64,000 nucleotides of DNA from an uncultured Muribaculaceae bacterium (GTDB lineage Bacteria > Bacillota_I > Bacilli_A > RF39 > UBA660): contig CAZVUP010000001.1 in the NCBI GenBank assembly GCA_964630365.1, positions 3,816-67,815 on the forward strand. Reading direction: 5' to 3'. The translations under genes and the position numbers were made by a program. Shown piece after piece: positions 37,597 to 61,672 of this stretch; the first letter of the stretch is position 1, and every line of letters begins with the position of its first letter. Below the pieces are notes generated by a model. That model had not been told where the DNA came from and searched no databases. It worked only from the letters and a program-made list of their open reading frames with translations.

Positions 37597-37622
37597 AAAA
37601 AAAAATATGTCAAAAGACATAT
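37597..37622 (-). terminator. Terminator after the VanW-family gene
   Basis: ATATGTC/GACATAT stem followed by T8 on the minus strand. Confidence 0.6.
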
Positions 37623-39830: not shown

Positions 39831-39861
39831 AAAAGAAAAAACGTATGAATTTTCATACGTT
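39831..39861 (-). terminator. Terminator after the 559-aa cargo gene
   Basis: ACGTATGA/TCATACGT stem followed by a T-run. Same sequence as the hairpin at 41624-41653. Confidence 0.7.
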
Positions 39862-41539
39862 AAGCCAATGGATAAATTTGATAGGGATTAGAACTACTCC
39901 CATTACCTTCTATAATTATTGTATTAGGATCTAAATACAATGTCGGCCAAATGTTAAAAGCAGAAGATACATTACTATAATTAGCAGATGAATTATTAAC
40001 AATATACCAAGCATTGGTTGCACCACTTTGTCCAGGAGTTATTGTCCATGTTGAATTGTTACTTTTTATCCAAGAAGAATTGGCACATGAAGTATATAAG
40101 GCCATCCAATATATTTGATGATTACAATTTGATAAATCTGCACTATAATAATAATCCGTTGGATACATTAATGCCACTTTTCCAGTCCAAGAAGTATCAT
40201 TACCACTATAAATAGATCCATTTCCATGCTCATAATAATACATATCACTAATCGAAACAAGAGCCAAATTTGGACTTGTAAAATATAAAGTTTCATCAGT
40301 AATGAAATTTCTTGTATCATCATTTTGCAAACCAGTAGTAGTAAAATCACAGTTTGATGTTGCAGCATTATCACCACTATAACACTTACCAGAAGCAGCA
40401 TTCCAATACAAACTACCACCAACACTAGCAGTTTCAAAACCAGAATTCAAAAGCTTATTGGCAGCAGATGTTTTCCAATTATTTGTCGAAGTGTCCCAAG
40501 AGTACTGACCAATAGGTGATTCTCTAAGTAATTTCACTTTACCGCCAAATACTCCTATTATCCGCCATTTTTCACAAGTACTATCACTTTGATTATCATA
40601 GTCCTGGCAATTAAAGTATATATAGTTACTAGGATTAGTGCCATAGTATCTTAAGTCTCCACCATTAGCACTATTTGCTCTACCACCAAACCTGTCATTA
40701 ATAATACCTAAAGATGTAGCTCTATTATATGTGTAATTGCCATTTTTAACCGTATTTATAACAGGATTTGCATAAATACCACTATAAAGTCCATCATCTA
40801 TATATCGGCTTAATGGCCAAAATTTTATTGTCACATCTGATTCTACACTATCTATTTTTACATATCTCTCCTTAATATTATATTGTGATCCAGCTACAGT
40901 ATAATTGTCAGTATTCGTAAAAGTTATACTGGCTCCACCAATTGGCACTCCAGATTGTATAAACTCCATATGATTCATTGCATATGTTTTATAATTATTT
41001 CCTCGAGGAGCATTTACATAGGTAATTGTATGATATCCTCGAAAATCAAATTCTAATAATAAATCAAAAGTTGTGTTATTCGCATCATATGCTCCATCAG
41101 CATATTTCATAGTAATATTAAATGTTTTTACTGCGCCTAAACTACATTTACTACTGTTATTATCATCACATAATGGTTCTGTCATTTGATAATTAGACAC
41201 TTCACAAACTAAATTACTAGGACAACCAGTAATTTCAGCAATTCCCATATTTTGATTTCCAATATTTGTAACTTCAACTGTATAAGTAACTGTTGAATCA
41301 GAATTAGGTAAAGAAAAATTTGGCGTAATATTATTAACATTATAATCTTCACTTATAGCTAACCCATCACTAGTACTACCATTAGGAGTAATATTAGTTA
41401 TACGTATATCTTTAATAATTCTTATTTGAGCACCTAAATCTCTCATCATCAAATTTCTATTCATTGCTGAAAAACCAACACTTATAGAAACTACAATAAG
41501 AAACACATAAATATAAACATACTTTATAAAATGCTTCAT
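39860..41539 (-). CDS. Secreted cargo protein 2 (shared leader/TasA-like N-module plus adhesin-like C-terminal half)
   Basis: Leader ...VGFSAMNRNLMMRDLG. N-module STVTYTVEVTNIGN. C-half CEKWRIIGVFGGKVKLL...W.TSAANKLLN...WTITPG...WPTLYL (the pattern I recall as DUF6273-like). Paralog of 41652-43334. Confidence 0.6.
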   Translation of the reverse strand: MKHFIKYVYIYVFLIVVSISVGFSAMNRNLMMRDLGAQIRIIKDIRITNITPNGSTSDGLAISEDYNVNNITPNFSLPNSDSTVTYTVEVTNIGNQNMGIAEITGCPSNLVCEVSNYQMTEPLCDDNNSSKCSLGAVKTFNITMKYADGAYDANNTTFDLLLEFDFRGYHTITYVNAPRGNNYKTYAMNHMEFIQSGVPIGGASITFTNTDNYTVAGSQYNIKERYVKIDSVESDVTIKFWPLSRYIDDGLYSGIYANPVINTVKNGNYTYNRATSLGIINDRFGGRANSANGGDLRYYGTNPSNYIYFNCQDYDNQSDSTCEKWRIIGVFGGKVKLLRESPIGQYSWDTSTNNWKTSAANKLLNSGFETASVGGSLYWNAASGKCYSGDNAATSNCDFTTTGLQNDDTRNFITDETLYFTSPNLALVSISDMYYYEHGNGSIYSGNDTSWTGKVALMYPTDYYYSADLSNCNHQIYWMALYTSCANSSWIKSNNSTWTITPGQSGATNAWYIVNNSSANYSNVSSAFNIWPTLYLDPNTIIIEGNGSSSNPYQIYPLA

Positions 41540-41623
41540 GTTATCCTCCGCTTACAAATATTTTGTGTACAATTTTGTATTCAAATAAATTGTAGCAAAA
41601 ATATCAATAACATACAATATAAA

Positions 41624-41653
41624 AAGAAAAAAACGTATGAATTTTCATACGTT
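41624..41653 (-). terminator. Terminator after the 560-aa cargo gene
   Basis: Identical ACGTATGA/TCATACGT hairpin and T-run. Confidence 0.7.
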
Positions 41654-43334
41654 ATGCTAGAGGGTATATTTTATAAGGTTTAGCATTTGTACCTTCACCA
41701 TCTATAAATATTGTATTAGCATATAAATACATTGTAGGAAGTACTGAATATCCTTCATAAACATCATTATAATTAGCTTTACTAGAAGATTCAACAATCC
41801 ACATATTACCTGTACCACTATACCCAGGGGTAGTAACCCACATTTTATTACTTTGTTTCATCCACGATGTATTAGCACATCCTGTTCCTAACCAATAAAT
41901 ATTAGCCGTACAATTACTTAAATTAGCACTATAATAATAGTCAGTTGCATAAGGGAGCATAACTTTTCCAGTCCATGATCTTTCAGCACCATTTCTTAAA
42001 CTTCCATTATTATGTTCTTGATAATACATATCACTTATAGATAAAAGAGCATTTTGAGGACCGGTAAAGTAAACGGTTTCATCTGATATAAAATCTTTTG
42101 TATCCCCATCTCTTAAACCATTACTTGTAAAACTACAATCAACTTGTTTAACACTTTGAAAAAGCCCAGCCTCAGTTGTATAACATTTACCACTACTACG
42201 ATTCCAATATAAACTGTTATTAACACTTTCACCACTATACCCTGAATTTAAAAGCTTTCTCATTGCTGATGTTGACCAAACATTACTACTTGGATCATAA
42301 GAAAAAGTCCCAATACTTGTTGTATTAATAATCTTAACTTTACCATTAAAAACACCTATTATTCGCCACTTTTCACAAGTACTATCTGATTGATTAGAAT
42401 AATCACTACAATTATAGTAAATATAATTATTAGCACTTGTTCCATAATATCTGACATTTCCACCATCAGGATCACTTGCTCTACCACCTTCTCTATCATT
42501 AATAAGGCCTAAAGAGGTAACTCGATTATAAGTATAAGAAGAAGAGCCGATAGTACCTCCATTAGAAACCGTACTTTTAGCACCATCAGCATATAATTTA
42601 TTTATATATTCACCAAGTGGCCTAAATCTTATTGTTATATCAGAATTTACAGATGCTGCATTAATTGTTAATGTTTTGTTACTCAAAGAATAATTAGTAC
42701 CATTAACTAGTGTTCCTCCATCATTAGTAATAGACATTCCACCAGCTGGATCATATGCTTGAATAAAATTAATATTATCCATAGCATATGTCTTATAATT
42801 ATTTCCACGAGGAGCATTTACATAAGTAACTGTATGATATCCTCGAAAATCAAATTCTAATAATAAATCAAAATTTGTGTTATTAGCATCATATGCCCCA
42901 GATGCATATTTAACAGTAACATCAAAAGATTTTACTGCCCCTAATTTACATTTTCCACTAGTATCACAAATAGGCTCTGTCATAGTATATCCAGAAACCT
43001 CACATACTAAATTACTAGGACATCCTGTAACATTAGCTATTCCCATTTCTACATTTCCAAAATTAGTAACTTCAATTGTATAACTAACAGTTGAATCTTG
43101 ATTAGGTAAACTTAAACTTGGCGTTACATTACTAACATTATAATCTTCATTCATAGCTAACCCATTACTTGTACTACCGCTAGGAGTAATACCAGTAACT
43201 CTTATATCTTTCTCAATTCTTATTTGAGCACCAATATCACGCATCATTAAATTTTTATTCATTGCCGAAAAACCAATAGTAAGTGTCAGAACTAAAAACA
43301 AAATAACAAAAGGAACAAATTTAAATCTTTTCAT
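41652..43334 (-). CDS. Secreted cargo protein 1 (paralog of 39860-41539)
   Basis: Leader ...IGFSAMNKNLMMRDIG. Same domain order. Blocks such as FDLLLEFDFRGYHT.TYVNAPRGNNYKTYAM are identical between the copies. Confidence 0.6.
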   Translation of the reverse strand: MKRFKFVPFVILFLVLTLTIGFSAMNKNLMMRDIGAQIRIEKDIRVTGITPSGSTSNGLAMNEDYNVSNVTPSLSLPNQDSTVSYTIEVTNFGNVEMGIANVTGCPSNLVCEVSGYTMTEPICDTSGKCKLGAVKSFDVTVKYASGAYDANNTNFDLLLEFDFRGYHTVTYVNAPRGNNYKTYAMDNINFIQAYDPAGGMSITNDGGTLVNGTNYSLSNKTLTINAASVNSDITIRFRPLGEYINKLYADGAKSTVSNGGTIGSSSYTYNRVTSLGLINDREGGRASDPDGGNVRYYGTSANNYIYYNCSDYSNQSDSTCEKWRIIGVFNGKVKIINTTSIGTFSYDPSSNVWSTSAMRKLLNSGYSGESVNNSLYWNRSSGKCYTTEAGLFQSVKQVDCSFTSNGLRDGDTKDFISDETVYFTGPQNALLSISDMYYQEHNNGSLRNGAERSWTGKVMLPYATDYYYSANLSNCTANIYWLGTGCANTSWMKQSNKMWVTTPGYSGTGNMWIVESSSKANYNDVYEGYSVLPTMYLYANTIFIDGEGTNAKPYKIYPLA

Positions 43335-43504: not shown

Positions 43505-44968
43505 TTATTTATTACCCTCTTCTAAATCTACTTCTTTAATTGTTAATAAATATAATTCTTCTTCATGACTAATAAAGAAATAACACTTCTGATGCTTATT
43601 AACAACATAATACTTAATTGGTAATTTTAAATTATCACGTACATCTAATAATTCTTGAAATTTACCAACTTTAATAACATTAATATTATCATTAATAACA
43701 GGAGCTGTTTCAGTCTCAACAATCAAACGATCATATTCTTTTAAAACTTTAGAAACATATTTATCATAATTAGATTTTTTTACCAAAACATACCTGATTA
43801 ATCTAACCAGTTTAATTGTAAAATATATCATTCCAACAAAACAAATAATTGCTAAAAGTGCAAAGAAATAATTAGTAACTGCTAAATGTTCAGTAGCTAA
43901 AACCTGCTTATTTTCATTAACCTCTTTATAATCTAACTTAACACTAATAGCTTTTTCAGATAGTGGGATATTTATAAGCATCTCACTATTGCCTTGTATA
44001 GGATATTTTACATCATATTTACTATTATCTTGTCTTACTCTAAAATAAACAAATAAATTACTCTTTGTCTCAAGACCATAACTAGTTCTAAAATTATTAG
44101 CTAAAGCATTATAGTAATTATAATCAATATTTATACTTTTTCTAATATTATGAGAAGAACTATTGCCAACCTTTTCTGTTACTGGTTCTTGTAAAACATA
44201 TTCTTTTTCAAAAAATAGATTTTTTTCACTATTATCAGTAATTTGAAGCTTAGCAACTATATCATATGTTAAATCAAGATCAACCATCTTATCAATATTA
44301 AAATTATAATCAAAATCTACATTAATATGATCAATAAGATTAGCTACATATAACATGTCTTTTCCTAAGTGATCCGTTTCATAGAAATTATTCTCTTTTA
44401 AATAAACTTGATAATCTAAGTTACTTTTTTCATTATAACTAATTGCATCACCATTAATTGTTGAAAAAGATTTTAGAATAAAGAATAAAGTCAAACCAAA
44501 TGATAATAATAACAATACTACCATTTTTCCTACACGATATTCATAACTAACATATTTTCCTTCATTTGGAATATGATTTTCAACTTTAGTTACATTTCCA
44601 CTATCTTGAAGTTTATTACTAGTATCAACACTTTCTTTTTCAGCTATTTGTTCAGATATCTCTGCAAGACTATCATCATTTGAAACAACATCATTAGAAT
44701 CCGGACTAAATGCATTAATAGACTCTTTTATCTGTCTTACTAAATCTTCAGATGTAATAGTTTCATCCATATAATCATCAACAATTTTATCAACATCTAA
44801 ATTGTTTTCGCTGGAATTCATATCAATTTCTTCAAGAGCTTTATTTATCTCTTTAACAAGATCTTCAGAACTCATAGTCTTTTCCAGTTCGTCATCTTTT
44901 CTAAGTGTCTCTTCAAGAGAATTCAACAATTCATTTGTCTGTTTCTTTTTTTTCTTGTGCCTAGACAT
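43505..44968 (-). CDS. Bitopic accessory membrane protein B (DUF5305-like) with an acidic cytoplasmic N-extension
   Basis: NEKSNLDYQVYLKENNFYETDHLGKDMLYVANLIDHINVDFDY aligns with 49406-50434. Order is TM, about 200-aa ectodomain, TM, cytoplasmic tail. ATG 44968 with GGGAGG upstream. Confidence 0.55.
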   Translation of the reverse strand: MSRHKKKKKQTNELLNSLEETLRKDDELEKTMSSEDLVKEINKALEEIDMNSSENNLDVDKIVDDYMDETITSEDLVRQIKESINAFSPDSNDVVSNDDSLAEISEQIAEKESVDTSNKLQDSGNVTKVENHIPNEGKYVSYEYRVGKMVVLLLLSFGLTLFFILKSFSTINGDAISYNEKSNLDYQVYLKENNFYETDHLGKDMLYVANLIDHINVDFDYNFNIDKMVDLDLTYDIVAKLQITDNSEKNLFFEKEYVLQEPVTEKVGNSSSHNIRKSINIDYNYYNALANNFRTSYGLETKSNLFVYFRVRQDNSKYDVKYPIQGNSEMLINIPLSEKAISVKLDYKEVNENKQVLATEHLAVTNYFFALLAIICFVGMIYFTIKLVRLIRYVLVKKSNYDKYVSKVLKEYDRLIVETETAPVINDNINVIKVGKFQELLDVRDNLKLPIKYYVVNKHQKCYFFISHEEELYLLTIKEVDLEEGNK

Positions 44969-44985
44969 CCACAAAAGCCTCCCTT

Positions 44986-46113
44986 CTATAATTCATTTAA
45001 CCAAACAGTTGGCATTCCTATAAAAGGAATTTTATGATCAACTGTTCCTATTATCATATCTTCAGTTATTACCCAGTTATCTTCATCATCATTACTATCA
45101 CCTTTACTATAGAAATAATATTTACCATTATCCTCTATAATATTAACTAAACGATGAACAATAATAACTCCCTCATATCTATAAGCAATTACTTGACCAG
45201 GTTTTAATTTCCCTATATGCTTATCGATCTTTTCAATAATAACTACATCACCTCGAGAAATATTAGGTTCCATACTACCACTTGCTATCGCAATTGCATA
45301 ATAATGGAAATAACCCGAAGTAAAATATACTAATACTATTGTCAACAAAACAGGCACAATATATGCACCTAAAAGCTTTTTATTATAATTTCTAGTTAAG
45401 AATTCATCATAATCTTTTGATAAAAATTTATGAACTCTAAATAAGAAACCAATAGGTAACAATAATTGAATAATAGATGTCAAATATTCATCTGGATTAG
45501 GTATTATTGGAAATACATAACGATATAGTCCAATTACTAAAGCAAAGAAAATTATAGGCTTATAACCAATTTTTAATGTTAAATAACAATAAACAATATT
45601 GCTTGCTATGACTGGTAATAAAGTCAATGCTATAAATATAAAGACTTTATAATTTGAAGAAAAATCAGATGCAGTAATTGCTACTGTAATATCTAAAAAT
45701 ATAAATAGCAACCAAGTCATTACATATAAAAGCCTATTACCTTCAGCTTTAGACATAATCATATAACGAAGTATTTCTTTTAAAACAATAGTAAAAGTTA
45801 TTGGTAATATAAATGTTTTTAATCCATATAAATTATAATAGCCATCAACTTTTGCAAAGCTTATAAAGATTCCCAAAAGATAAAACAAAATAAAGAATAT
45901 TATCAAATAAATAATAGTATCTAAAATAACATCTTTCGCATATCTATGTTTATCTTTTTCAAAACCAAATAAAAATTTAAAAGCTATAAGAACTACTATA
46001 AGAAATAATAACATTTTATATCCTGATAATATATTCCATACAAAACTATTTAGAATCAAGAATAAAAAAATTAGTACTTCAAAAGTCAATAAACGACTAT
46101 ACCCCTTTTTCAT
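44986..46113 (-). CDS. Polytopic membrane domain fused to a SipW-type (ER-type S26) signal peptidase, copy B
   Basis: About 250 aa with about 7 TMs, then IASGSMEP (Ser), IVHRLV (His), SKGDSNDDEDN, IPFIGMPTVWLNE. Confidence 0.7.
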   Translation of the reverse strand: MKKGYSRLLTFEVLIFLFLILNSFVWNILSGYKMLLFLIVVLIAFKFLFGFEKDKHRYAKDVILDTIIYLIIFFILFYLLGIFISFAKVDGYYNLYGLKTFILPITFTIVLKEILRYMIMSKAEGNRLLYVMTWLLFIFLDITVAITASDFSSNYKVFIFIALTLLPVIASNIVYCYLTLKIGYKPIIFFALVIGLYRYVFPIIPNPDEYLTSIIQLLLPIGFLFRVHKFLSKDYDEFLTRNYNKKLLGAYIVPVLLTIVLVYFTSGYFHYYAIAIASGSMEPNISRGDVVIIEKIDKHIGKLKPGQVIAYRYEGVIIVHRLVNIIEDNGKYYFYSKGDSNDDEDNWVITEDMIIGTVDHKIPFIGMPTVWLNEL

Positions 46114-46153
46114 GCTATCCTCCTAAATAATCTTGTTAAAATACATTATAGTA

Positions 46154-46180
46154 GGCACAACCGACATAGTCGATTGCGCC
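46154..46180 (-). promoter_or_regulatory. GC-rich intercistronic stem-loop between the TasA-like B and peptidase B genes
   Basis: 11-bp stem. It is perfect (with two G-U pairs) only in the minus-strand RNA and has two mismatches on the plus strand. The downstream sequence is only weakly U-rich. Confidence 0.4.
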
Positions 46181-46201
46181 ATCTATAAAAAATTCTAAGT
46201 A

Positions 46202-46855
46202 TTAATCTACAGAACCATATAGTAAAGAAACATCACCAAAAGCTACAGTGAAATCACCATCAGCTCTATCTCCACCTTCAGCATAAGTAATAGTTACTAC
46301 AACATCTTCACTAGCACCAACTGCTAATGCATGACTAGATATTGAACCATTTGATGAAGTATATGCAGATCCATCACCAACTTTAACACTGATAGAAATA
46401 TCATCACAAGCAGCGGTAACTAAAGCAGCAGTTGTTCCATTACCTGGAGTACAAACTTTAGCAGCAGCAGGACTAGAACCATTAACATTATTAAATGTTA
46501 CTCCATTTAAATAAGCTTGTAATTCACCAGTATTCTTAGCCTTAAAAGTATAAGTAGCAGTTTGTCCTGGTGCAGTAAAATTAGCTTTTAAACCAGTGAT
46601 ATCATGGTCACTATTGTTAATAGTAGCAGTATCAGCAGTAAAACCACTTGCTGGAGATAATGTTGGAGTTACAGAAGTACCATTTTCAGTACTATTAGTA
46701 AATACAACATTGAAAGTATTTTGATCAGGGCTAACAGCAGCACTAGACTTAATATTCAAAGTTTGAGAAAATGCTGCAAAACCTAATGATAAACCTCCAA
46801 CAGCTAACAATAAAGCAACAATTGCCATAACTTGAGCTCTTCTATTTTTTTCCAT
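46202..46855 (-). CDS. TasA/camelysin-like secreted protein B (candidate major subunit)
   Basis: Leader ...LSLGFAAFSQTLNIKSS (compare TasA GGTWAAFNDIKS). Ala/Thr/Ser/Gly-rich beta module with PGQTATYTFKAKNTGEL. AGGAGGTG RBS. Confidence 0.6.
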   Translation of the reverse strand: MEKNRRAQVMAIVALLLAVGGLSLGFAAFSQTLNIKSSAAVSPDQNTFNVVFTNSTENGTSVTPTLSPASGFTADTATINNSDHDITGLKANFTAPGQTATYTFKAKNTGELQAYLNGVTFNNVNGSSPAAAKVCTPGNGTTAALVTAACDDISISVKVGDGSAYTSSNGSISSHALAVGASEDVVVTITYAEGGDRADGDFTVAFGDVSLLYGSVD

Positions 46856-47067: not shown

Positions 47068-49416
47068 TTATTCAGATTTTATAAAGTGCATTCCCGTCCA
47101 CACTTGAACTCTATCACCAGGATTATAATAAGTATTTTCAGAAGTACTATACCATCTTCCAGTAATTAATTTAGATAATGTATAATAATCCCCTTCTTTA
47201 ACCAAATAATTACTTTTAATCAACATATTGTCCTGATCAGTAGTAACCATCCAATATCTTTCATTATTTTTCATTATTGGCGGTAACAACATATTATCAG
47301 CTATAATACTATTTTTAATATAATCTTTAAATAACGCTAAATTCGTTCGATTGTCATTAAGAAGAATTGCTAACTCGCCTGCTCTAAATCCTTTATACAT
47401 ATAATATGGTAATACATCTTCTAAGTATTTATAATCAATAGTTTTAACTACTCTATCATTACTCCATGTAATATCATCATTAAACTTATATAAATTCGTA
47501 ATATCCGTATATCTATCTGTCGTTATAAAATCATCAGATACTATATTATAATATCTAGTTGACGCTACAAAATAATATTTTTTATTCTCATTAACCACCT
47601 CAATATTAGTAACACTAACAGTAGTTAACTTATCACCATTTAATTTCTTAACATTAGTACCAATATGAAAATGTTCTCTATCCTTAAAATTAACAAACTT
47701 ATTCTCATCGGCACTAAAGAATGAATGATCATTAAAAATACTAATAGTTGAATTATCACTAAAAGTAATTTTTATATATGAAGGAGTTGTATAAGCTTTT
47801 TCAATCCATAATGGATATTCTGGAACAAGTCTACCTAATTCATAGCTCCATACCATTAATAAATCATCATATTTAATATCTTCTATATTCTTATACTTAC
47901 CATTAGCTAGTAAAACTTTTGTACCTTCAATTAAGCAACTACCACCTTCAGCAGTTATAACAACATCACCAACAACATTTGGAATCGATACTCGACCATT
48001 ATTATATGTATAACTACCAGTACCAAGAGTTTGTCCGCCCATTGTAACAGTAATAGACTCAGGTAAAGTATTATTACCACTAGCTGTCATTGTACCAGTA
48101 TAAGTTTGATTACGATTTACTGTCGAAGTATTAGGACAATTCAAATTAGTACAACTAAAACTAACATTAAAAACCCATTTATAAGCATCCGATGTGCTAC
48201 GTGAAGCGTGCCCACGACCAGTCGTTGCTGAATTAACATAATCGCTACCACTATTACCACTTTCATCTGTACCACTAACAACAAAATAATATGTTCCCTC
48301 ACTAAGACCAGTAACAACTAAACTCTCACTATCATCACTAGTATTCATAGTTTTAACAACACTTCCACTATTATTAAAAACAGTCACCGTATAGAAAGAA
48401 ATATTTGTATCATCCTCACCACTCCAAGTAACAAGAACAGATCCAACATCATCTTGAATAACAGCATTAACATTACTAATGAAAGGTGGTGTTGTATCAA
48501 CATAAACAACTGTCTTATCAACCAATAAAGAAATTCTACCAGCATTTATTGCACTATCACCAGTAGGAGTAACATACACAGTAACACGCTCTTCATCAAC
48601 ATTATATTCATTACCTGCTAACTCTTTTACATAAAAAGTATAATTAGAATCTCCTCCAGCTGTAATAGTCTGTGTTGGATATGGATTTCCATTAGCATCT
48701 ACTATTTGAAAGTGATCACTACTAATTGAAATATCAAAAGTACTATCATAACTATAAGTACTTAAAACCCTAACAGAAAACTCTGCTGTATCAGGATTAC
48801 CCCTTAAATCACCTGTCGTTGGAGCATTCATAGATGCCAAAATATGAGCCGTTGTATCTTCTGCTACTTGTGGCGCAAAATCTCCATTAATAACAAAAGT
48901 ATCAGTATCTTGCTCACTAGATGGATTAGTAAAAGTAAACGATACCGTAAACGTCTTTGACTCCCCTGAAGATATAACATCACCAGCGGCAATACCAGTT
49001 ATTGTATATCCTACATAAGAAGAATCAATAAGTTCTCCATTACTCTGTCTATTAACAGTCATTGGATAACTAAGACTCGTATACACAAAATCATAAAAAC
49101 TATCATTTTGAATAGTAACATCAAACACTGCAACATATGTAGCACTCTGATCAGCAACAGTCGTAAATTTAAGTCCAAAATCAATAGAATTACCATTATT
49201 AATTACAGGATTAGAAATAGCATTAGTGTGCGTTCCTTGAGTAACACTCTTAATATAAATATCTCCCCCAGCTTTAAAGATAGATCCCCCACTTAAATTC
49301 AAAATTTGCCCATAAAGAGCAAATCCCACAGTCATAAAAAGTAATACAAAAACAGCAAAAAAAGAGATTATAACGCTGCTTTTTAATCTTTTCTTCTCAA
49401 CATACCTATTCATCAT
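47068..49416 (-). CDS. Large secreted cargo protein: shared leader/TasA-like module, Fn3-like and Ig-like domains, Hint domain, unknown C-terminal domain
   Basis: Leader ...VGFALYGQILNLSGG. Fn3-like PPFISNV...VTWSG...GTYYFVVSGTDESGN. Hint block A GSCLIEGTKVLLANGKYKNIEDIKYDDLLMV (Cys codon 47935-47937). Block B-like ISIFNDHSFF. ATG 49416/49413 after GAGGA. Confidence 0.65.
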   Translation of the reverse strand: MMNRYVEKKRLKSSVIISFFAVFVLLFMTVGFALYGQILNLSGGSIFKAGGDIYIKSVTQGTHTNAISNPVINNGNSIDFGLKFTTVADQSATYVAVFDVTIQNDSFYDFVYTSLSYPMTVNRQSNGELIDSSYVGYTITGIAAGDVISSGESKTFTVSFTFTNPSSEQDTDTFVINGDFAPQVAEDTTAHILASMNAPTTGDLRGNPDTAEFSVRVLSTYSYDSTFDISISSDHFQIVDANGNPYPTQTITAGGDSNYTFYVKELAGNEYNVDEERVTVYVTPTGDSAINAGRISLLVDKTVVYVDTTPPFISNVNAVIQDDVGSVLVTWSGEDDTNISFYTVTVFNNSGSVVKTMNTSDDSESLVVTGLSEGTYYFVVSGTDESGNSGSDYVNSATTGRGHASRSTSDAYKWVFNVSFSCTNLNCPNTSTVNRNQTYTGTMTASGNNTLPESITVTMGGQTLGTGSYTYNNGRVSIPNVVGDVVITAEGGSCLIEGTKVLLANGKYKNIEDIKYDDLLMVWSYELGRLVPEYPLWIEKAYTTPSYIKITFSDNSTISIFNDHSFFSADENKFVNFKDREHFHIGTNVKKLNGDKLTTVSVTNIEVVNENKKYYFVASTRYYNIVSDDFITTDRYTDITNLYKFNDDITWSNDRVVKTIDYKYLEDVLPYYMYKGFRAGELAILLNDNRTNLALFKDYIKNSIIADNMLLPPIMKNNERYWMVTTDQDNMLIKSNYLVKEGDYYTLSKLITGRWYSTSENTYYNPGDRVQVWTGMHFIKSE

Positions 49417-50434
49417 AATCCTCTTTTTCAATTACATATTCCCAAGCCATATGTTCAAATATAATAACAAATCTTGTTCTATTCTTTTCTTGAACATAAT
49501 TAATTGGCGTTCTAACGTCATTATAAACTACTAACAAATCATCAAAAGAACTAACTTCTACTAAATTAAATTTACTTAGTTTTAATTCTTTTACTTTTAC
49601 CATAATACTACCATAATCATTAGTAATCTTAATAACATTTCCATTATAACTATCTAATTTCTTATTCTTAGCTAACCATACAAAATGCTTAAACACAACA
49701 TAGAATAATCCAAAGATATCTATTAAGAATAATATCTTAAAGATAATATGCTTTAAATCATTAAGTCTTACTTTACGAGTTATTTCTTTTTGTTTATTAT
49801 TTTGATCAGTATTAATAACACCCTCTACTGCTACTTTAGATAAAGGTATTTTTACACTTATTTCAGAATTAACAGGAATAGTATCTTCAGCACTAACTTG
49901 TGGTTTACCATCAACAACAAGTGCAAGTTTCAAGAATCCATCACTACTCAAATTATAAGTATCAACAAATGATAATAATAATTCATTATATTTCTGATAA
50001 TCAATATTAATTGACTCAGATATTTCACAATCTTCTTCACCAAATAAATATTTAGTTCTGATATCAGTTAAATTAAAACTCTTCTCCCAATAAGTACCAA
50101 CTTGATTATTTGTCTTTTCAGCACTAACTGTTGCTACTATATGATATTTTAATTCACCATCAACAGGAGTATTAAATAATACTTTATATTTATAATCAAC
50201 AACTAAATGATCTATCAAACTAGTAATATAGGTTTTATCTTTACCAAGAAAAGGTTGATCAAAGAAATTATTTTCTTTTAGATATACTTTATAATCAATA
50301 CTATTATCTTCATTGTAAGAGTATTTTATATCTTGGCAATCATTGAAACCAATGGAATAAAATACTAAACCAAGAATGACTAGTACTGCAACATATACCC
50401 AAAAATAATCTGTTGACCTTTTCTTTACTAGCAC
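49406..50434 (-). CDS. Bitopic accessory membrane protein A (DUF5305-like)
   Basis: NEDNSIDYKVYLKENNFFDQPFLGKDKTYITSLIDHLVVDYKY. TMs at about residues 10-28 and 229-250. GTG start with AAGGAGTG upstream. Overlaps the next gene by 11 nt. Confidence 0.55.
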   Translation of the reverse strand: MLVKKRSTDYFWVYVAVLVILGLVFYSIGFNDCQDIKYSYNEDNSIDYKVYLKENNFFDQPFLGKDKTYITSLIDHLVVDYKYKVLFNTPVDGELKYHIVATVSAEKTNNQVGTYWEKSFNLTDIRTKYLFGEEDCEISESINIDYQKYNELLLSFVDTYNLSSDGFLKLALVVDGKPQVSAEDTIPVNSEISVKIPLSKVAVEGVINTDQNNKQKEITRKVRLNDLKHIIFKILFLIDIFGLFYVVFKHFVWLAKNKKLDSYNGNVIKITNDYGSIMVKVKELKLSKFNLVEVSSFDDLLVVYNDVRTPINYVQEKNRTRFVIIFEHMAWEYVIEKEDYDE

Positions 50435-50439
50435 CTATA

Positions 50440-51594
50440 TCACTCCTTTCTTAAAAATTCATTAAACCAAACCGTTGGCCACCCTATATATTTACAAACA
50501 TAGATAACTTTACCAATAATATCTTCTTCTTCAATTAAATAACCATCTTCATTGTTATTGGCATCTCCTTTAGTATAGAAGAAAACTTGTTCCTCATATT
50601 CAACCTTTTTAACAACCCTATGAGCAATAATTTTACCACTCTTTTGATAGATTAATATTTCCCCAACTTCAGTATCTTTAGGATTTTTCTTATCAACCAA
50701 TACTGCATCTCCCTTATAGTAAACAGGTATCATTGAGTTTGATGCTATCGCAATCAATTGATATCTAAGTATTCCAGAAACTAGTATTGTTAAAATAATT
50801 AAAGCTACAACTAAAGGTCTAGTCATAAACCCAACACTAAATTTATTCTCTTTTCCTCTTCTTCTATCTAATCTATTTATTTTAACGATATATTTTCTAT
50901 CTGCTAAATAAATAACAAAAGGTATTAATATATGCATAGTCCCATATAAATACTCATTTAAATTAGCGAAGAATGGAAATATATATATATAACATTTAGC
51001 CAATACCTTGAATACTAAACTAGGTAATAGACCAAAATTATATGTCATATAACTACATAATAATTCCTGTGCAATTATAGGAAAAATAGTTATAGAAATA
51101 AAAATGAACCATTTAAGTTTATTATCAAGAAATCCTATATTCATCTCTAATAATATATTCAATATAATTAACAAAATAGTTAATATAACAATTTCACTTT
51201 TATTTATATAAGTACTTTTAATAAGAGTATATCTAAAAACCTCTTCAACCACTAAAAATATAAGTACAGGAATAAATCCATTTAATACTTTATCAACATC
51301 AAGTGAAAATGCTGTTTTAGAAAATCCAATTAAAATTCCAAGCAAAAAACAAATAAAGAAAAATCCTACAAAAACAGAAATTTCTATTTTTATAGCTGTC
51401 TCTCTATCAAAAGAATTATCCTTCTTATAACCTAAGAAGTAAATTGCCGGAATAAGTAAAATTACTAAAAAGCATACAATTACAAAGCTTCTACCAAGAG
51501 GATTATTATAGTTAGACATTAAAAGGAAATATAATACTTCAAATATTAATAAAGCTATCTCAAATATATAAATCCTTTTAAGTCTAACCTTCAT
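50440..51594 (-). CDS. Polytopic membrane domain fused to a SipW-type signal peptidase, copy A
   Basis: About 260 aa with about 7 TMs, then IASNSMIP, IAHRVV, TKGDANNNEDG, YIGWPTVWFNE. Confidence 0.7.
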   Translation of the reverse strand: MKVRLKRIYIFEIALLIFEVLYFLLMSNYNNPLGRSFVIVCFLVILLIPAIYFLGYKKDNSFDRETAIKIEISVFVGFFFICFLLGILIGFSKTAFSLDVDKVLNGFIPVLIFLVVEEVFRYTLIKSTYINKSEIVILTILLIILNILLEMNIGFLDNKLKWFIFISITIFPIIAQELLCSYMTYNFGLLPSLVFKVLAKCYIYIFPFFANLNEYLYGTMHILIPFVIYLADRKYIVKINRLDRRRGKENKFSVGFMTRPLVVALIILTILVSGILRYQLIAIASNSMIPVYYKGDAVLVDKKNPKDTEVGEILIYQKSGKIIAHRVVKKVEYEEQVFFYTKGDANNNEDGYLIEEEDIIGKVIYVCKYIGWPTVWFNEFLRKE

Positions 51595-51618
51595 AATCAC
51601 ACCATCTTTATATTAAAA

Positions 51619-52197
51619 TTAAGCTACATCTTCATAAAGAAAAGATCCATTAATTGTAATTGTTTTATCTTCTGTTGGTAAATCTGCTTGTGGAATATCT
51701 TCTTTATTTTTATAAGTAATAGTTAATGTTACATCTTTTGTAGCACCATTTTCATTAATTACATTAGATAAACCTGTTGCATTAGTAGTATAATCTGCTC
51801 CATCATAAGTAAGTTTACACTCAGCAAATTTTTGTTGATCAGCTGTTAAACCACTAAAATTAATAGTAGTAAGTTTTGCTTTAATAGTACCATCATTAAC
51901 AACTTTCCACTTTGCAACATAAGTATCACCTGGTTTATTCAAAGTTACATTGAAAGTAAAATCAGTATTTGTTAAACTACTTGATTGAGCAACATCAGCT
52001 GTACCACTTTCTTGTAAAGTTCCTGATTTATAATGAACATTCCAAGCATTTTTGAAAACAGCTTTACTTGAAGTACCACTAGCTCCACCACCGATATTTA
52101 ATGTTGTAGAATATAATGCGAAACCTACAGCCATGAATAATAGTACTGCTACCAATAAAATAATAGTCTTTCTTTCACTCTTTTTACTTTTTCTCAT
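51619..52197 (-). CDS. TasA/camelysin-like secreted protein A (candidate major subunit)
   Basis: Start MRKSKKSERK (ATG 52197, AGGAGG 7 nt upstream). Leader ...VGFALYSTTLNIGGG. FTFNVTLNKPGDTYVAKWKVVNDGT resembles TasA NLSNLKPGDKLTKDFQFENNGS. Confidence 0.6.
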   Translation of the reverse strand: MRKSKKSERKTIILLVAVLLFMAVGFALYSTTLNIGGGASGTSSKAVFKNAWNVHYKSGTLQESGTADVAQSSSLTNTDFTFNVTLNKPGDTYVAKWKVVNDGTIKAKLTTINFSGLTADQQKFAECKLTYDGADYTTNATGLSNVINENGATKDVTLTITYKNKEDIPQADLPTEDKTITINGSFLYEDVA

Positions 52198-52245
52198 CTT
52201 CATACCTCCTCTATTATATAAATTTAACATTTTTCGACATATTTC

Positions 52246-52324: not shown

Positions 52325-53149
52325 TTATTTTTTGTTGTATATATATACTTTATCAACTTCAACCATTTCATCTTGACCGGTGTATTCTTCAAATTTTATG
52401 TCTTTCTTATGCGGAGGTGCATAAACAGCTACTTGCCCATGCTCAGTTAAATGAGGTTGTACCTTATCATCTAAAAAACTAGTTAATGTAGTAAATTGCT
52501 CATTACTAAAATAGTCTGTTATATTCGACATAAAAACAGCATCATATTTTTCATCAGAACTAAGTTTAGAAATAAAGTCATGAAATGTAGCATGATGTAA
52601 TCTAACATCTACCCTTTCCAAGTTATCCCTTGTAACATAATAGTTTTCATCAAAAGCAAAACATCTAAGTCTACTATCAATAAAGAATTGTAAGAAGATA
52701 AATCTAGATTTATTATTTTTTAAATTTCCGCTTTGATATAATGTATCCCAAAATATTAGTGAATCTAAGTCCAACTCTTCTCTAATTTTTAAATATATAT
52801 TCAAATCAAATATCTCAGAAGGATCTCTAAAACCAAAAAAGTATGCAAATTCATCTTGACTTAAAGTTTTTAAAGCCGCTAATTTTAACTTTATCAAATA
52901 TATCTGAAATCTATTTTTATCAAAAGCATCTACTTCTTTTGCTCCACTATAAACAGCTTGTAAGATATGATCTCCACTGCCAGCAACAGTTAATACTTTC
53001 GCACCATCTAACTTAAACTTATCATAATAAATTGATAAAGCTTCATTTGTTCGAATATAAATTTTTCCATAATTTTTTGGATATTTCTGAAAATAAACAT
53101 CATTTAACATATTTATAGCAACTTCAATATCTCGTGGTAATTCCTTCAT
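52325..53149 (-). CDS. DUF3419/BtaA-like SAM-fold protein, array member 7
   Basis: IYIRTNEALSIYY, KVLTVAGSGDHILQAVYSGAKEVDAFDKNRF, KLKLAALK, FWDTLY, YDAVFMSNITDY, VAVYAPP. Confidence 0.6.
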   Translation of the reverse strand: MKELPRDIEVAINMLNDVYFQKYPKNYGKIYIRTNEALSIYYDKFKLDGAKVLTVAGSGDHILQAVYSGAKEVDAFDKNRFQIYLIKLKLAALKTLSQDEFAYFFGFRDPSEIFDLNIYLKIREELDLDSLIFWDTLYQSGNLKNNKSRFIFLQFFIDSRLRCFAFDENYYVTRDNLERVDVRLHHATFHDFISKLSSDEKYDAVFMSNITDYFSNEQFTTLTSFLDDKVQPHLTEHGQVAVYAPPHKKDIKFEEYTGQDEMVEVDKVYIYNKK

Positions 53150-53162
53150 AAGGCACCCCCAT

Positions 53163-53975
53163 TTATAATTTACTTTTTATATAAACTTTTTGCTTATCTA
53201 AATAAGTATCTTCAGTATAGTCTTCGTATTGTACTACATCACTCAGAGTCGGTACATATACTGCCATTTTGCCACCTGTTTCTAAGTTTTTACTTAAAAC
53301 ATGCAATACATAATCCTTAAATTCATTCTTTTCTACAAAAGTTAACCAATCATAAATATTAGATAGAAATATTGCTTTATAAGAATCTGTAAGCACTCCA
53401 CCTAAATCAAATAAATCACTCAAATAATAGCCAATAGATACATCATCTATTTTTTCCCTAATAGAATAATAATTTGCACTATCCCTGTAACTATCTATCC
53501 CCAAATCATGACGTTGTGGTCCAAAAACAATTCTATGAATATTTTTTATATTACCATCTTGATATAAACTATCCCAAAACAACTGAGCATCATCAGCTAA
53601 ATAATCAGAAAACTTCTCATAAATTCTTAGGCTCATAAAATCAAAAGCTCCATTATTTAATGAAAAAAAGTTTTCAAAATCTTCATGACTTAATGTTTTT
53701 ATAGCAGCAACCTTTAATTTAACAACATATAAAGCAAATCTATTATGATCAAACACATCTACTTTTTTTGCTCCTTCATGTACTGCTTGCAAAAGATGAT
53801 CTCCACTTGCCGCAACTGTTAAAACTTTTTCACCAGAAATTGAAAATTTTTTATAATAAGTTGATATTTGCTCATTTGTATTTAAAAAAGCTTTTGAATA
53901 AGTAGACGGAAAAATATAATTTATATCATTTAAAGTTCTAAGCGCAACTGCAATATCTTTTTTTACTTGATTCAC
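53163..53975 (-). CDS. DUF3419/BtaA-like SAM-fold protein, array member 6
   Basis: Same motif set (FLNTNE, VLTVAASGDHLLQAV, VDVFDHNRF, KLKVAAIK, FWDSLY, AIFLSNIYDW, MAVYVP). GTG start with GAAGGGGT SD. Confidence 0.6.
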   Translation of the reverse strand: MNQVKKDIAVALRTLNDINYIFPSTYSKAFLNTNEQISTYYKKFSISGEKVLTVAASGDHLLQAVHEGAKKVDVFDHNRFALYVVKLKVAAIKTLSHEDFENFFSLNNGAFDFMSLRIYEKFSDYLADDAQLFWDSLYQDGNIKNIHRIVFGPQRHDLGIDSYRDSANYYSIREKIDDVSIGYYLSDLFDLGGVLTDSYKAIFLSNIYDWLTFVEKNEFKDYVLHVLSKNLETGGKMAVYVPTLSDVVQYEDYTEDTYLDKQKVYIKSKL

Positions 53976-53977
53976 TT

Positions 53978-54802
53978 TTAACCCCTTCTCTCATAAACAT
54001 ATACTTTTCTATCTAACTCTTGTTGACCAATATATTTTTCATAATTAAATCCCTCATTATGATGCGGAACATATACTGCTACTCTAGCTTCTGGATTTAA
54101 ATGGCTATTTAAATCCTTCATAATAAATCTAGGATAATTTTTTTTACCCCATCCCATTAAATAATCATAAATATTAGATAAAAATACGGCACCATATTTT
54201 AGATCACTTTGAATACTATCTAAAACACCATAAATATCACTATGACAATAAGTGATTTCTACATTTTCTAAAAGTGTTTTTGTCATCCAGAAATTATCTT
54301 TCTCATCATATCTTTCAGCTGTTCTATCAAATCTAGAACTTAAAAAAGTCATATACCCATGCCAACTAATAAACCCAGCCTTATACATTGCATCCCAAAA
54401 CATAGCTGTTTCTTCATCTAAATAATCACGTATTTTTTTATAAAGATTAAAACTAAAATTCTCCCTAAATTTAGCATAATTATAAAAATTAAGAAATTCT
54501 TTTTGACTTAAAGCTTTAACAGCAGCAATCTTTAATTTAGCTGCATATATAGCAAACTTATTTTTATCAAATGAATCAATTCTCTTCGCCCCATAATAAA
54601 CAGCTTGTAATATTTGATCTCCTCCAGAAGAAACCGTTAAAACATTTCCTCCATCTATTGGAAAAAATCTATAATATTCAGATAAATTTTCATTAGTATT
54701 AACATAAATTGTTCCATACCCATCAGGAAAAGTATATGGACAAGGTGAATGTAAACAATCAACACCAATTTTTATATCTTTTTCTACTTCTTGTAAACTC
54801 AC
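53978..54802 (-). CDS. DUF3419/BtaA-like SAM-fold protein, array member 5
   Basis: Same motif set (YVNTNE, VLTVSSGGDQILQAV, IDSFDKNKF, KLKIAAVK, FWDAMY, AVFLSNIYDY, VAVYVP). GTG start with AAGAGGGTG SD. Confidence 0.6.
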   Translation of the reverse strand: MSLQEVEKDIKIGVDCLHSPCPYTFPDGYGTIYVNTNENLSEYYRFFPIDGGNVLTVSSGGDQILQAVYYGAKRIDSFDKNKFAIYAAKLKIAAVKALSQKEFLNFYNYAKFRENFSFNLYKKIRDYLDEETAMFWDAMYKAGFISWHGYMTFLSSRFDRTAERYDEKDNFWMTKTLLENVEITYCHSDIYGVLDSIQSDLKYGAVFLSNIYDYLMGWGKKNYPRFIMKDLNSHLNPEARVAVYVPHHNEGFNYEKYIGQQELDRKVYVYERRG

Positions 54803-54804
54803 AA

Positions 54805-55659
54805 TTACACCCTCTTAAATTCTTTTTCTAACTTTTCTCCTCTTTTTAAAGTATAAACAACTCCCTCTTCTCCATGAGAATCATTAATTGAACAAATCTC
54901 TGGATCAGGATTATCAAATGGTGCATATACAGCCATTACCCCATCATCAGTAAGATATTCAGAAAGTTCTACAATTAAATCAGAAAACTTTTCTCTTTCA
55001 TCTAAAATTAACCAATCATAAATATTTGATAAAAATATGGCATCATATTTTCTATTCTTATCCAAACAAGCCACTAATTCATATAAACTTAAATTAAAAA
55101 AATTAATTTCAGAATTATTTAATCTTTTCTTTGTCTTAGTATAAAAATAAGGACTAGAAAATCTTCTAAAACCATAATCTAAACATTTTGTAAATAAAGT
55201 ATATGACCAAGCTACAAGATTATTTCTATTATCTGAAAGCTGACCTTCAAAATACATCGCATCCCAGAAAGCTTTAACATCATTATCTAAATAGATTCTA
55301 ATTCGCATATAAGTATTAGTATTCAAAAAACCTTTTAAACTATAATAATAATTTATAAATTCTTCTCTTTCTAGTACTTTCAAAGCAGTTATTTTAAGTT
55401 TTGCAGCATATATAGCTATCTTATTTTTATCAAAGGCATCTACTTCTCTAGCACCATTACAAACAGCTTGTAATATATGATCTCCTCCTGAAGAGACAGT
55501 AAGAACTCTTCCACCTTTACATGGAAAAGCTCTATAGTACTTTGATAAACCTTCATTAGTATTAAAATAAACACTACCGTATCTATCATCCATTTTAAAC
55601 TTATGTGTCTTATCTAGAATAGAAAGTCCCTCTTTTATGTCCTCTTCTATATTTGACAT
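54805..55659 (-). CDS. DUF3419/BtaA-like SAM-fold protein, array member 4
   Basis: Same motif set (YFNTNE, VLTVSSGGDHILQAVCNGAREVDAFDKNK, KLKITALK, FWDAMY, AIFLSNIYDW, MAVYAP). Its ATG abuts the stop of the upstream small gene. Confidence 0.6.
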   Translation of the reverse strand: MSNIEEDIKEGLSILDKTHKFKMDDRYGSVYFNTNEGLSKYYRAFPCKGGRVLTVSSGGDHILQAVCNGAREVDAFDKNKIAIYAAKLKITALKVLEREEFINYYYSLKGFLNTNTYMRIRIYLDNDVKAFWDAMYFEGQLSDNRNNLVAWSYTLFTKCLDYGFRRFSSPYFYTKTKKRLNNSEINFFNLSLYELVACLDKNRKYDAIFLSNIYDWLILDEREKFSDLIVELSEYLTDDGVMAVYAPFDNPDPEICSINDSHGEEGVVYTLKRGEKLEKEFKRV

Positions 55660-56022
55660 TTATTTTACCTTCTCTTCAGAAAGTCCTTCTAAATGCAATA
55701 AAACATCTTCTAAATGCTTGGTCTCATATGCTAAAGAACGTCCATATTCATTTAATGCTACATATTGACGAACTAATGAATTATCTTGTATTAATTTTTT
55801 TGCTTCTTCTGCTATTTCAACAAAACTAGAAAAAGTATCATCCTCCGTATTTAAAACCATATCAATGCTCAATCCATTATAAATAAGATAAGTACTTATC
55901 TCTACATATCTTTTTAATGAACTATCATCTAGTTTTCTAAGATTTTCTAAATCACCAATTACACTAGACAATAAAGCATTTTTTTCTCTATAAACTCTTT
56001 TTACATTTTTATAATTATCCAT
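55660..56022 (-). CDS. Small helical cytoplasmic protein embedded in the paralog array
   Basis: 120 aa with no TM or signal peptide and helix-favouring composition. AGAGGGGA RBS. Its stop TAA is directly followed by the ATG of member 4. Confidence 0.45.
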   Translation of the reverse strand: MDNYKNVKRVYREKNALLSSVIGDLENLRKLDDSSLKRYVEISTYLIYNGLSIDMVLNTEDDTFSSFVEIAEEAKKLIQDNSLVRQYVALNEYGRSLAYETKHLEDVLLHLEGLSEEKVK

Positions 56023-56114
56023 TAAACATATCCCCTCTACTAGGTAATTAATAAAAAATAGAAATAGAATAAACTATATATAAAATATAACTACCCCTCT
56101 TTTTATTGCTAGCT

Positions 56115-56143
56115 ATAATATCATATTTTCTTAAAAAAGTAAA
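56115..56143 (-). promoter_or_regulatory. Candidate internal promoter in the only sizeable gap of the array
   Basis: TTTACT, 17 nt, (TGa)TATTAT on the minus strand within the 143-nt gap. Confidence 0.3.
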
Positions 56144-56165
56144 GAAAAACAGAAACTAATCTAAA

Positions 56166-57795: not shown

Positions 57796-57815
57796 AATAC
57801 CACACCAATCTAAAT

Positions 57816-58682: not shown

Positions 58683-58716
58683 GCCAATAGAAACTAGCAA
58701 AAGTTAGTCTATTGGC
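58683..58716 (-). terminator. Terminator overlapping the stop of the S11 carboxypeptidase gene
   Basis: GCCAATAGA/TCTATTGGC stem (extendable) followed by U-rich sequence. It separates that gene from the paralog array. Confidence 0.55.
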
Positions 58717-59895: not shown

Positions 59896-59939
59896 AAAAT
59901 AATTTTTTAATGCTATTATATAATTAGGAGATATGATAT

Positions 59940-60836: not shown

Positions 60837-60878
60837 CAATCTTTTTTTATGATAAAATTATAATAGAAAGGAGAATAT

Positions 60879-61646: not shown

Positions 61647-61672
61647 AAAAGACTGAAAATTCAGTCTTTTTT
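61645..61672. terminator. Bidirectional terminator between convergent genes
   Basis: AAAAGACTGA/TCAGTCTTTT hairpin with A/T runs on both sides. Confidence 0.6.

Follow-up and report, generated by a model that had tools for sequence, protein, structure and literature searches.

A Hint domain with a conserved extension at the C-terminus of a pilin-like fibre subunit: a candidate autoprocessing module of gut bacteria

Hedgehog/intein (Hint) domains occur in selfish inteins, in toxin-associated bacterial intein-like (BIL) domains and in the device that lipidates animal Hedgehog proteins. B-type BIL domains reportedly go back to Amitai et al. in 2003, and we take them to correspond to the Pfam family Hint_2. 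In the present study, we describe a 787-aa protein encoded on the minus strand of a 64,000-nt stretch of contig CAZVUP010000001.1 (the window, meaning the whole stretch that was analysed; all positions are window coordinates unless a locus is named), the C-terminal portion of which comprises a predicted Hint domain and a conserved extension. B-type BILs do not possess the C-terminal motif and cleave their own N-terminal junction (PMC7765530). Small pilins combined with a multi-transmembrane signal peptidase I (SPase I), a DUF5305 protein and larger minor, tip or anchor subunits constitute the locus grammar of donor-strand fibres of the TasA/Tafi/AbpX type (PMC11821415, PMC12337348). Bacterial AbpX loci often carry an anchor subunit that ends in SLH or LPXTG, together with a sortase (bioRxiv 10.64898/2026.01.04.697558). 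The locus described here shares this grammar, including a large subunit with a pilin-like N-domain, and on sequence grounds the 787-aa protein is assigned to such a SipW-dependent TasA/Tafi/AbpX-type fibre locus as its large, pilin-like subunit. It differs from the anchor and tip subunits of those loci, as described in the AbpX preprint, in that the Hint domain and its tail occupy the position of the LPXTG or SLH anchor. A preliminary description of this DNA had called the protein a large cargo protein; it is a specific fibre subunit rather than generic cargo.

The gene (47068-49431, minus strand, like all of its segments) is an intact open reading frame (ORF) that starts with TTG and shares its first 26 nt with the upstream DUF5305 gene. 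It encodes a signal/anchor, a pilin-like domain, an Ig/Fn3-like stalk, the Hint domain and the C-terminal extension, a layout shared by relatives with the full module, whose modal length is 770-800 aa. The predicted N-terminal signal/anchor (49297-49431; residues ~1-45) is of the SipW-cognate class and consists of a hydrophobic stretch followed by VGFALY..LNLSGG. Motifs of this type recur in two small subunits (203 and 217 aa) and two paralogs (559 and 560 aa) encoded in the window and in at least 62 family members recognized by regular expression, with more found by eye. The pilin-like N-domain (48877-49296; residues ~46-185) appears from its sequence to be homologous to the 203-aa subunit encoded at 51619-52230, with which residues 1-185 align at 31% identity over 202 columns (BLASTP, E 2e-12). 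The beta-rich, Ig/Fn3/PKD-like stalk (47938-48876; residues 186-498) ends in VVITAEGGS (490-498) and is kept in relatives, Saccharibacteria proteins included; its Pfam matches, all sub-threshold, fall within residues 324-414 (K319L-like_PKD, Big_13 and Ig_J). The Hint domain (47515-47937; residues 499-639) starts with CLIEGTKV, the Cys499 of which (block A) is encoded by codon 47935-47937, and contains Lys514, Asp523, Asp559, the block-B residue His569 within ISIFNDHSFF (563-572), the block-F residue Asn629 and Asp639. Its F/G-like block, KYYFVASTRYYNIVSDDFITTD (residues 618-639), ends in Thr-Thr-Asp639 and has no His-Asn plus Cys/Ser/Thr, and 148 residues follow. The preliminary description had read the position of the Cys, the block B-like motif, the F/G-like block ending in TD and the approximately 150 further residues correctly. 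These comprise the post-Hint extension (47281-47514; residues 640-717), which contains the ITNLYKF motif with the near-invariant Asn646, Tyr648 and Phe650, then PYYMYKGFR and three helices, and the C-terminal beta subdomain (47071-47280; residues 718-787), which contains RYWMVTT, EGxYYTL and WYSTSENTYYNPGDRVQVWTGMHF.

Is the segment from Cys499 to Asp639 a genuine Hint domain, as had been claimed? Profile searches, including the Hint, Hint_2 and PT-HINT check that had been proposed, gave intein and Hint matches, but all below the curated cut-offs. With the 787-aa protein as a single sequence, Pfam Hom_end_hint scored 19.6 bits (cut-off 32.1), Pfam Intein_splicing 13.7 bits (E 0.057; cut-off 35.8) and NCBIfam TIGR01445 20.9 bits (cut-off 24.5). 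Across family members, intein models were the best sub-threshold matches, with best E-values of 1.6e-6 and 1.7e-5, and no Pfam or NCBIfam model reached its curated threshold for the Hint module. A phmmer search of PDB chains with a single module sequence found no match, and a family-profile search of PDB sequences gave marginal matches to BIL2 only. Because the single-sequence profile matches are sub-threshold and the PDB sequence search was empty, sequence motifs alone are insufficient to settle the Hint identity. The predicted structure was informative in this respect. An AlphaFold2 model of residues 480-787, built from 16 sequences, has a mean predicted local distance difference test (pLDDT) score of 85.5, above 90 over most of the Hint part, and a predicted template modelling (pTM) score of 0.82. 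A Foldseek comparison of this model with the PDB yielded 58 matches at E<=1e-3, all of them Hint domains with a probability of 1.0. The top match was Tetrahymena BIL2 (6y75, E 7.8e-8), and others included the PhoCDC21-1 and Npu DnaB inteins (E about 2e-7), Hedgehog HhC (1at0, E 4.4e-7, target TM-score 0.73), the Clostridium thermocellum BIL (2lwy, E 7.1e-7, root-mean-square deviation 2.4, target TM-score 0.81) and the gp41-1 intein (target TM-score 0.88). The top matches span target TM-scores of 0.7-0.88, and 2lwy has the highest sequence identity (20%) within the top 50. The aligned length of ~143-150 residues agrees with residues 499-639, which, as modelled, form an all-beta, horseshoe-like domain of the Hedgehog/intein type. 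Its C-terminal boundary is defined by the register of block F/G. HMMER aligns profile Asp143, equivalent to Asp639, with the terminal Asn143 of BIL2, which was mutated to Ala in that crystal, and the AlphaFold2 strands at 630-632 and 635-638 fit the last hairpin of a Hint domain. Block F/G also aligns without gaps with what we take to be the corresponding Npu DnaE sequence, VYDIGVERDHNFALKNGFIASN.

The module resembles each of the known Hint classes in part. It shares with inteins (Npu DnaE and gp41-1) the fold and a gap-free alignment of blocks A, B and F/G. Unlike inteins, it lacks a C-extein, a +1 Cys/Ser/Thr and a homing endonuclease, most members are without a terminal Asn, and its host protein is not conserved; the segment after the Hint domain is not the continuation of an interrupted host protein but a conserved family domain itself. 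A-type BIL and PT-HINT domains (2lwy; Neisseria MafB/FhaB) likewise reside near the C-terminus of secreted bacterial proteins, but they keep the His-Asn pair that is absent here, PT-HINT (PF07591) matches 0 of 13 members and no toxin/immunity pair is present. B-type BILs are similar to the module as Hint folds of secreted, non-conserved bacterial proteins in which the N-terminal motifs are present and the C-terminal His-Asn is missing, so that N-terminal cleavage and not splicing is expected (PMC7765530). They differ in lying inside variable regions of mainly proteobacterial proteins, whereas the present module is terminal, carries one conserved extension and occurs in gut Bacilli and Saccharibacteria; Hint_2 (PF13403) matches 1 of 13 members (E 0.0014). 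Hedgehog and Hog proteins share the fold, the absence of splicing residues and the order of varied secreted N-domains, a Cys-initiated Hint domain and a short helical C-terminal extension. This likeness is one of layout as known from sequence and model; the present module is bacterial, has an extra beta subdomain, has no identified counterpart of the Hedgehog-specific catalytic Asp or of the late Cys143, and matches the Hedgehog Hint profile (PF01079) weakly, in 5 of 13 members at E>=0.002. The fold and its chemistry are already known and not categorically new. What is new is the clade, its bacterial Hog-like architecture and its exclusively C-terminal placement in surface and pilus proteins, together with the fact that neither curated models nor the searchable literature cover it. 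We found no paper that describes this module and none that joins 'Hint domain' with 'Saccharibacteria', and the AbpX preprint (bioRxiv 10.64898/2026.01.04.697558) mentions neither Hint nor intein.

An exhaustive HMMER search with a 13-sequence profile against 1.84 billion representatives retrieved 3771 proteins at E<=1e-3, of which 2322 reached E<=1e-10 and 179 reached E<=1e-30, where the latter two figures are clusters at 50% identity and the 2322 may take in other Hint-bearing proteins. Word-indexed homologue searches were far less sensitive (15, 26 and 6 matches). The module represents a large, unnamed bacterial clade of Hint domains that escapes the present Pfam and NCBIfam models and whose members are attached to pilus and surface proteins of little-studied gut lineages. 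Conservation was counted over 116 full-module proteins taken from the best 150 matches and the first 15. The module lies at the extreme C-terminus in all 116, with 0-5 residues after it in 103. Cys499, the Cys1 of intein nomenclature, is present in 115 and the block-B His569 in all 116, as are Lys514 and Asp523; Asp559 is found in 115 and the block-F Asn629 in 113. Cys1 and the block-B His are among the sole invariant or near-invariant residues over sequences that are ~30% identical, and both are also retained in divergent short variants. The position equivalent to the intein terminal Asn carries Asp in 84 proteins, Glu in 13, Tyr in 4, Ser in 3, and Asn and Thr in 2 each, the rest being gaps or other residues, among which Leu is also seen; because it varies in this manner (D, E, N, S, T, L, Y), it is not a conserved functional residue. 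The penultimate position is Thr/Ser, and the +1 position is most often Gly (50), followed by Pro (12), Ala (9), Asp (8), Ile (7) and Ser (5). The splicing set that had been described as missing from this protein (terminal Asn, penultimate His and +1 nucleophile) is hence unconserved in its 116 relatives as well, and the missing His-Asn plus Cys/Ser/Thr excludes canonical splicing. To judge from these alignments, the residues for N-terminal thioester formation are intact, and the N-terminal, thioester-forming half of intein chemistry is under strong constraint, whereas the C-terminal, splicing half is not. One Saccharibacteria member (994 aa; L053 7718-10702) has a true Asn at the canonical terminal position (FLTTN/G) and stops at the end of the helical extension; it is flanked by housekeeping genes (BipA, TatD) and not by a pilus operon, and a Flg_new protein is encoded 3 kb away.

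The residues that assist catalysis in inteins present a different picture. The block-B Thr, the block-F Asp/His and the penultimate His are unconserved in the family. In the 787-aa protein, the Thr of the block-B TxxH motif is missing, with Phe566 at position -3 to the His, and V/I/A/Y/F occupy this position across the family. These losses would be consistent with a dead, purely structural Hint fold that acts as a spacer or binding domain. We regard such a loss of activity as improbable, given that precisely the nucleophile Cys1 and the block-B His are among the residues that stay invariant or near-invariant at ~30% identity.

How would the module act? We propose that residues 499-787 probably constitute a C-terminal autoprocessing module that resembles Hog and B-type BIL domains and whose function is N-terminal scission. 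The Hint fold, the invariant Cys and His, the absent splicing set, the terminal position and the fibre-locus context together support this autoprocessing reading. The 787-aa protein would be exported by Sec and fold outside the cell. Cys499, helped by His569, would then shift the Ser498-Cys499 peptide bond to a thioester carried by the Ser498 carbonyl. Without the terminal Asn/His pair and a +1 nucleophile, the intermediate would stop short of splicing, and an external nucleophile would attack the thioester, which would release the 289-aa Hint domain plus tail and leave a fibre subunit that ends at Ser498. The extension (640-717, with the optional 718-787) would give the cut its purpose, either by holding on to a partner, such as the cell surface or an acceptor, up to the moment of cleavage or by positioning the nucleophile, in parallel with the sterol-recognition region of Hedgehog, which positions the nucleophile there. 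We infer the occurrence of the acyl shift and scission, their extracellular site and the identity of the nucleophile; provided that scission takes place, water would have roughly a little better than an even chance of being the nucleophile and a specific acceptor a little less than an even one. If the module only cuts, it would represent a new maturation step for fibres of the TasA/AbpX type and of type IV. Several considerations weigh against autoprocessing as the function. Catalysis could be slow because the block-B Thr and the block-F Asp/His are unconserved. It is hard to see what would be gained from hydrolytic self-removal alone. Autoprocessing also makes no use of the near-invariant Asn646, which hints at a further reaction on the C-terminal side. 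Finally, self-anchoring makes little sense for the type IV pilin and lipoprotein hosts of the module, so that one unified function is not evident.

The fate of the Ser498 thioester bears directly on the role of the extension. The thioester may be resolved by a specific nucleophile held by the extension in a Hedgehog- or sortase-like manner, a form of transfer that we put forward tentatively. Transfer could tie the subunit covalently to the envelope of its own cell (peptidoglycan, lipid II or lipid) as a means of self-anchoring, or to a molecule of a target surface as a means of pilus-tip adhesion. By analogy, the module might possibly be the bacterial counterpart of Hog, an enzyme-free sorting domain that achieves covalent attachment as the Hint domain and tail leave, with no sortase. 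The combination of a constant Hint domain and a ~75-aa helical extension with varied secreted N-domains mirrors the Hog layout (PMC7765530), and the extension is retained even where the beta subdomain is lost. In related AbpX loci, the subunit at the same position ends in LPXTG, which is processed by sortase thioester chemistry, or in SLH. A C-terminal anchor would be logical for most hosts, which lose their N-terminal signal, and a self-removing Hint domain would be pointless unless the tail has a role. A wall acceptor would be available, given the peptidoglycan genes of the window (PBP5-type carboxypeptidase, PASTA kinase and VanW), and a low-sensitivity search of 1.13 Mb (window plus loci) detected no SrtA-like gene. 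Conversely, conservation is lower in the extension than in the Hint domain (1.7-1.8 versus 2.6 bits per column), NPxTG-type sorting signals in some related loci indicate that sortase is not generally absent, and self-anchoring is implausible for type IV pilins and lipoproteins. To our knowledge, all characterized bacterial Hint domains cleave or splice, and we know of none that transfers to a non-protein acceptor, which counts for water as the nucleophile. If transfer proves true, it would bring sortase-like or thioester-adhesin-like chemistry to uncultured gut Bacilli and episymbiotic Saccharibacteria, the acceptor being, for example, an amine or hydroxyl group of the cell envelope or a surface molecule of a host or prey. 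It would provide bacteria with a new way to anchor or glue surface proteins and protein engineering with a compact self-labelling tag.

Autoprocessing at the N-terminal junction does not account for a conserved residue downstream of the Hint end. Asn646 (codon 47494-47496, in a motif within 47482-47502) is located seven residues past Asp639, within [ST]-N-[LM]-Y-x-F, and is present in 113 of the 116 members, a conservation above that of Asp639. It is retained in short variants whose canonical terminal position is taken by Leu, Cys, Thr, Glu or Tyr. The preliminary description held that a Hint domain without the C-terminal Asn performs cleavage or transfer. This outcome is expected for B-type BIL and Hog domains (PMC7765530), but a terminal Asp is not inert, as Asp or Gln at the intein terminal position can still cyclize in some inteins (PMC4031507), and Asn646 had been overlooked. 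A double cleavage or BIL-type splicing can thus be envisaged, in which N-terminal thioester formation is combined with cyclization of Asn646 (or Asp639) and the chain is cut after the Hint domain. The tail would then be freed as a separate protein, or its alpha-amine would attack the thioester, so that the Hint domain is excised and the tail joined to the stalk with no need for a side-chain nucleophile. The persistence of Asn646 in proteins without Asp or Glu at the canonical position, the replacement of the cyclizing Asn in some inteins and the C-terminal cleavage by A-type BILs with a variably placed His-Asn (PMC7765530) argue for this scheme. However, the BIL2 alignment and the AlphaFold2 strands end the Hint domain at 639. 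The spacing between the last strand and Asn646 differs among variants and Asn646 follows a short helical turn in the model, which together place it outside the canonical block-G register. Moreover, neither a penultimate His nor a block-F His is available to assist cyclization, and the Asp639 position is variable. We therefore consider double cleavage unlikely. Asn646 may have a purely structural role, may cover the active site as a lid or may be a displaced cyclizing residue, and C-terminal cleavage at Asp639 or Asn646 may be conceivable even though the terminal Asp is not a conserved feature.

In the autoprocessing reading, the tail would leave with the Hint domain, and its nature is informative about what the cut may serve. 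The structure prediction of the C-terminal ~150 residues that had been called for produced a confident model (50 sequences; pLDDT 92.9, pTM 0.81), in which a linker with NLYxF is followed by three helices (~676-709) and the beta subdomain (718-787). The unknown domain of the preliminary description is conserved and without a significant structural match, but it can be divided into a helical extension and a beta subdomain, the latter being dispensable. The helical extension (640-717, ~75 aa) is found in every family variant, short ones included. The beta subdomain is lacking in short variants, many Saccharibacteria proteins among them, which end directly after the helices. Foldseek of the tail against the PDB found nothing at E<0.1; the weak matches are enriched in beta-grasp and adhesin repeats (InlB 9qr4, MucBP 3lyy and ubiquitin-like folds), and the top match in BFVD is annotated as internalin B-like (probability 0.99, E 0.011). 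The Pfam Flg_new profile (Listeria-Bacteroides repeat) matched 4 of 50 members below the cut-off (best E 9.6e-5). A comparison of the beta subdomain by hhalign with true Flg_new repeats of other family members gave a probability of 54% (P 1.3e-4) over 25 columns with a G..Y.LP....F.GWY core, and a plain hidden Markov model of the true Flg_new repeats did not match the tail significantly. The beta subdomain is probably a divergent beta-grasp of the Flg_new/InlB-B-repeat type, that is, a surface-protein building block rather than an enzyme or toxin. In MafB- and CdiA-type proteins, Hint domains directly precede C-terminal toxins, and the N-terminal presenting parts of the present family are diverse, in keeping with a polymorphic-toxin-style arrangement in which the Hint domain is a pre-toxin releasing peptidase and the 148-aa tail a fibre-delivered effector. 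We judge this arrangement very improbable. The tail is a single conserved family and not polymorphic, it resembles adhesin-type repeats and no toxin fold, PT-HINT was never matched, and the genes downstream of the module gene are heterogeneous, unrelated housekeeping genes without a conserved immunity-like gene across the 54 loci compared. The tail also occurs alone in a 176-aa ORF (P0165; L067 6001-6531 and L068 5715-6245), where it is joined at LLTSDG to an unrelated 18-aa N-terminus. This ORF has no signal peptide and is flanked by ABC-transporter genes on one side and a protein kinase gene on the other; it was seen on 3 contigs, which come from at least 2 samples. It may represent what is left of a module that has been domesticated or is decaying.

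The module terminates a variety of secreted proteins, most of which are SipW-class pilin-like subunits (the at least 62 counted above). Other hosts are type IV prepilin-like proteins (G/FTLIELL; Pfam N_methyl, 35.3 bits), TasA-class AYFTD proteins, lipoproteins, and BspA-LRR and Flg_new-rich surface proteins. A fusion of gmk to the Hint module (P0005; L001 282-1460) was considered as an intein-like mobile insertion and rejected. It is an assembly chimera or rearrangement, because the same locus in L015 (9536-10894) encodes a 452-aa type IV pilin-like protein with the same 24 residues before the Cys. Two similar cases are likewise best accounted for as chimeras, namely P0131, in which a glucan phosphorylase N-terminus meets the module at a shared LDENG, and P0183, which involves a nitroreductase.

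The 787-aa gene is the fourth gene of a minus-strand cassette in which it is preceded by the genes for the 203-aa subunit, SPase I and the DUF5305 protein. The first gene (51619-52230) encodes the small pilin-like subunit, which has the same signal class and is homologous to the N-domain of the 787-aa protein. The second (50440-51600) encodes a polytopic SPase I of the archaeal/SipW type (TIGR02228, 84.5 bits; cut-off 51.85), and its long N-terminal part with multiple transmembrane segments fits the description of the AbpX-associated SPase I. The third (49406-50434) encodes a TafG-like DUF5305 protein (Pfam DUF5305, 32.2 bits; cut-off 29), a putative SPase I accessory subunit (PMC11821415; bioRxiv 10.64898/2026.01.04.697558). 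A second minus-strand cassette without a Hint protein is located directly downstream (43505-46855) and encodes the 217-aa subunit (46202-46855), an SPase I (44986-46113; TIGR02228, 76.4 bits, same cut-off) and a DUF5305-like protein of 489 aa (43505-44974), which bears a long acidic N-terminal extension. The module is encoded in 64 loci of one-genome-per-species contigs, all from metagenome-assembled genomes, in rumen and gut 'Bacilli', Tenericutes/Mycoplasmatota, Erysipelotrichaceae and Candidatus Saccharibacteria/Nanosyncoccus. The four-gene order of small pilin, SPase I, DUF5305 and big subunit is found in 35 of the 64 loci, and 3 more have it in divergent orientation.

The second cassette is followed by genes for the tandem 559/560-aa paralogs (39860-43334, minus strand). 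They have a SipW-class N-terminus (TIGFSAMN or SVGFSAMN) and a Cys-rich C-terminal half, with neither a Hint domain nor a Pfam family, and similar genes adjoin the Hint gene in four other loci (L003, L011, L013 and L014). In L035, L037 and L038, TasA-class proteins of 372-376 aa with AYTSYE/AYESYE/AYQSYE-type signals are encoded ~10-1220 nt after the module gene. They end in NP(G/K)TGD, a transmembrane segment and a basic tail, which corresponds to a sortase-type sorting signal.

Upstream of the first cassette, ~seven tandem paralogs of 270-293 aa are encoded at 52325-58625 (minus strand), of which the three that were scanned are DUF3419 proteins and the rest are alike by eye; an unrelated 120-aa ORF lies at 55660-56022. 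A functional tie between this array and the fibre cassette was ruled out, since the array is common to the two closest relatives only (L003 and L050). The window also encodes, on the minus strand, a PBP5-type D-Ala-D-Ala carboxypeptidase (58709-59848), a PASTA-domain Ser/Thr kinase (9934-11739) and a VanW-like protein (37622-38848). These genes indicate that the host is a Firmicute with a cell wall, even though some relatives are labelled 'Tenericutes', and they leave a wall-less (Mollicutes) host with a sterol acceptor unsupported. A 647-aa protein encoded at 2774-4717 (minus strand) combines DUF285 ('Mycoplasma protein') with BspA-type leucine-rich repeats, a repeat type that it shares with three Hint-tail proteins (P0089, P0128 and P0157). 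The window has a strong minus-strand coding bias except at ~59900-61650, its sole stretch with a positive GC skew. Three plus-strand ORFs of at least 120 aa are present in the window, two of them in this stretch (59940-60836 and 60879-61646) and the third at 24001-24633.

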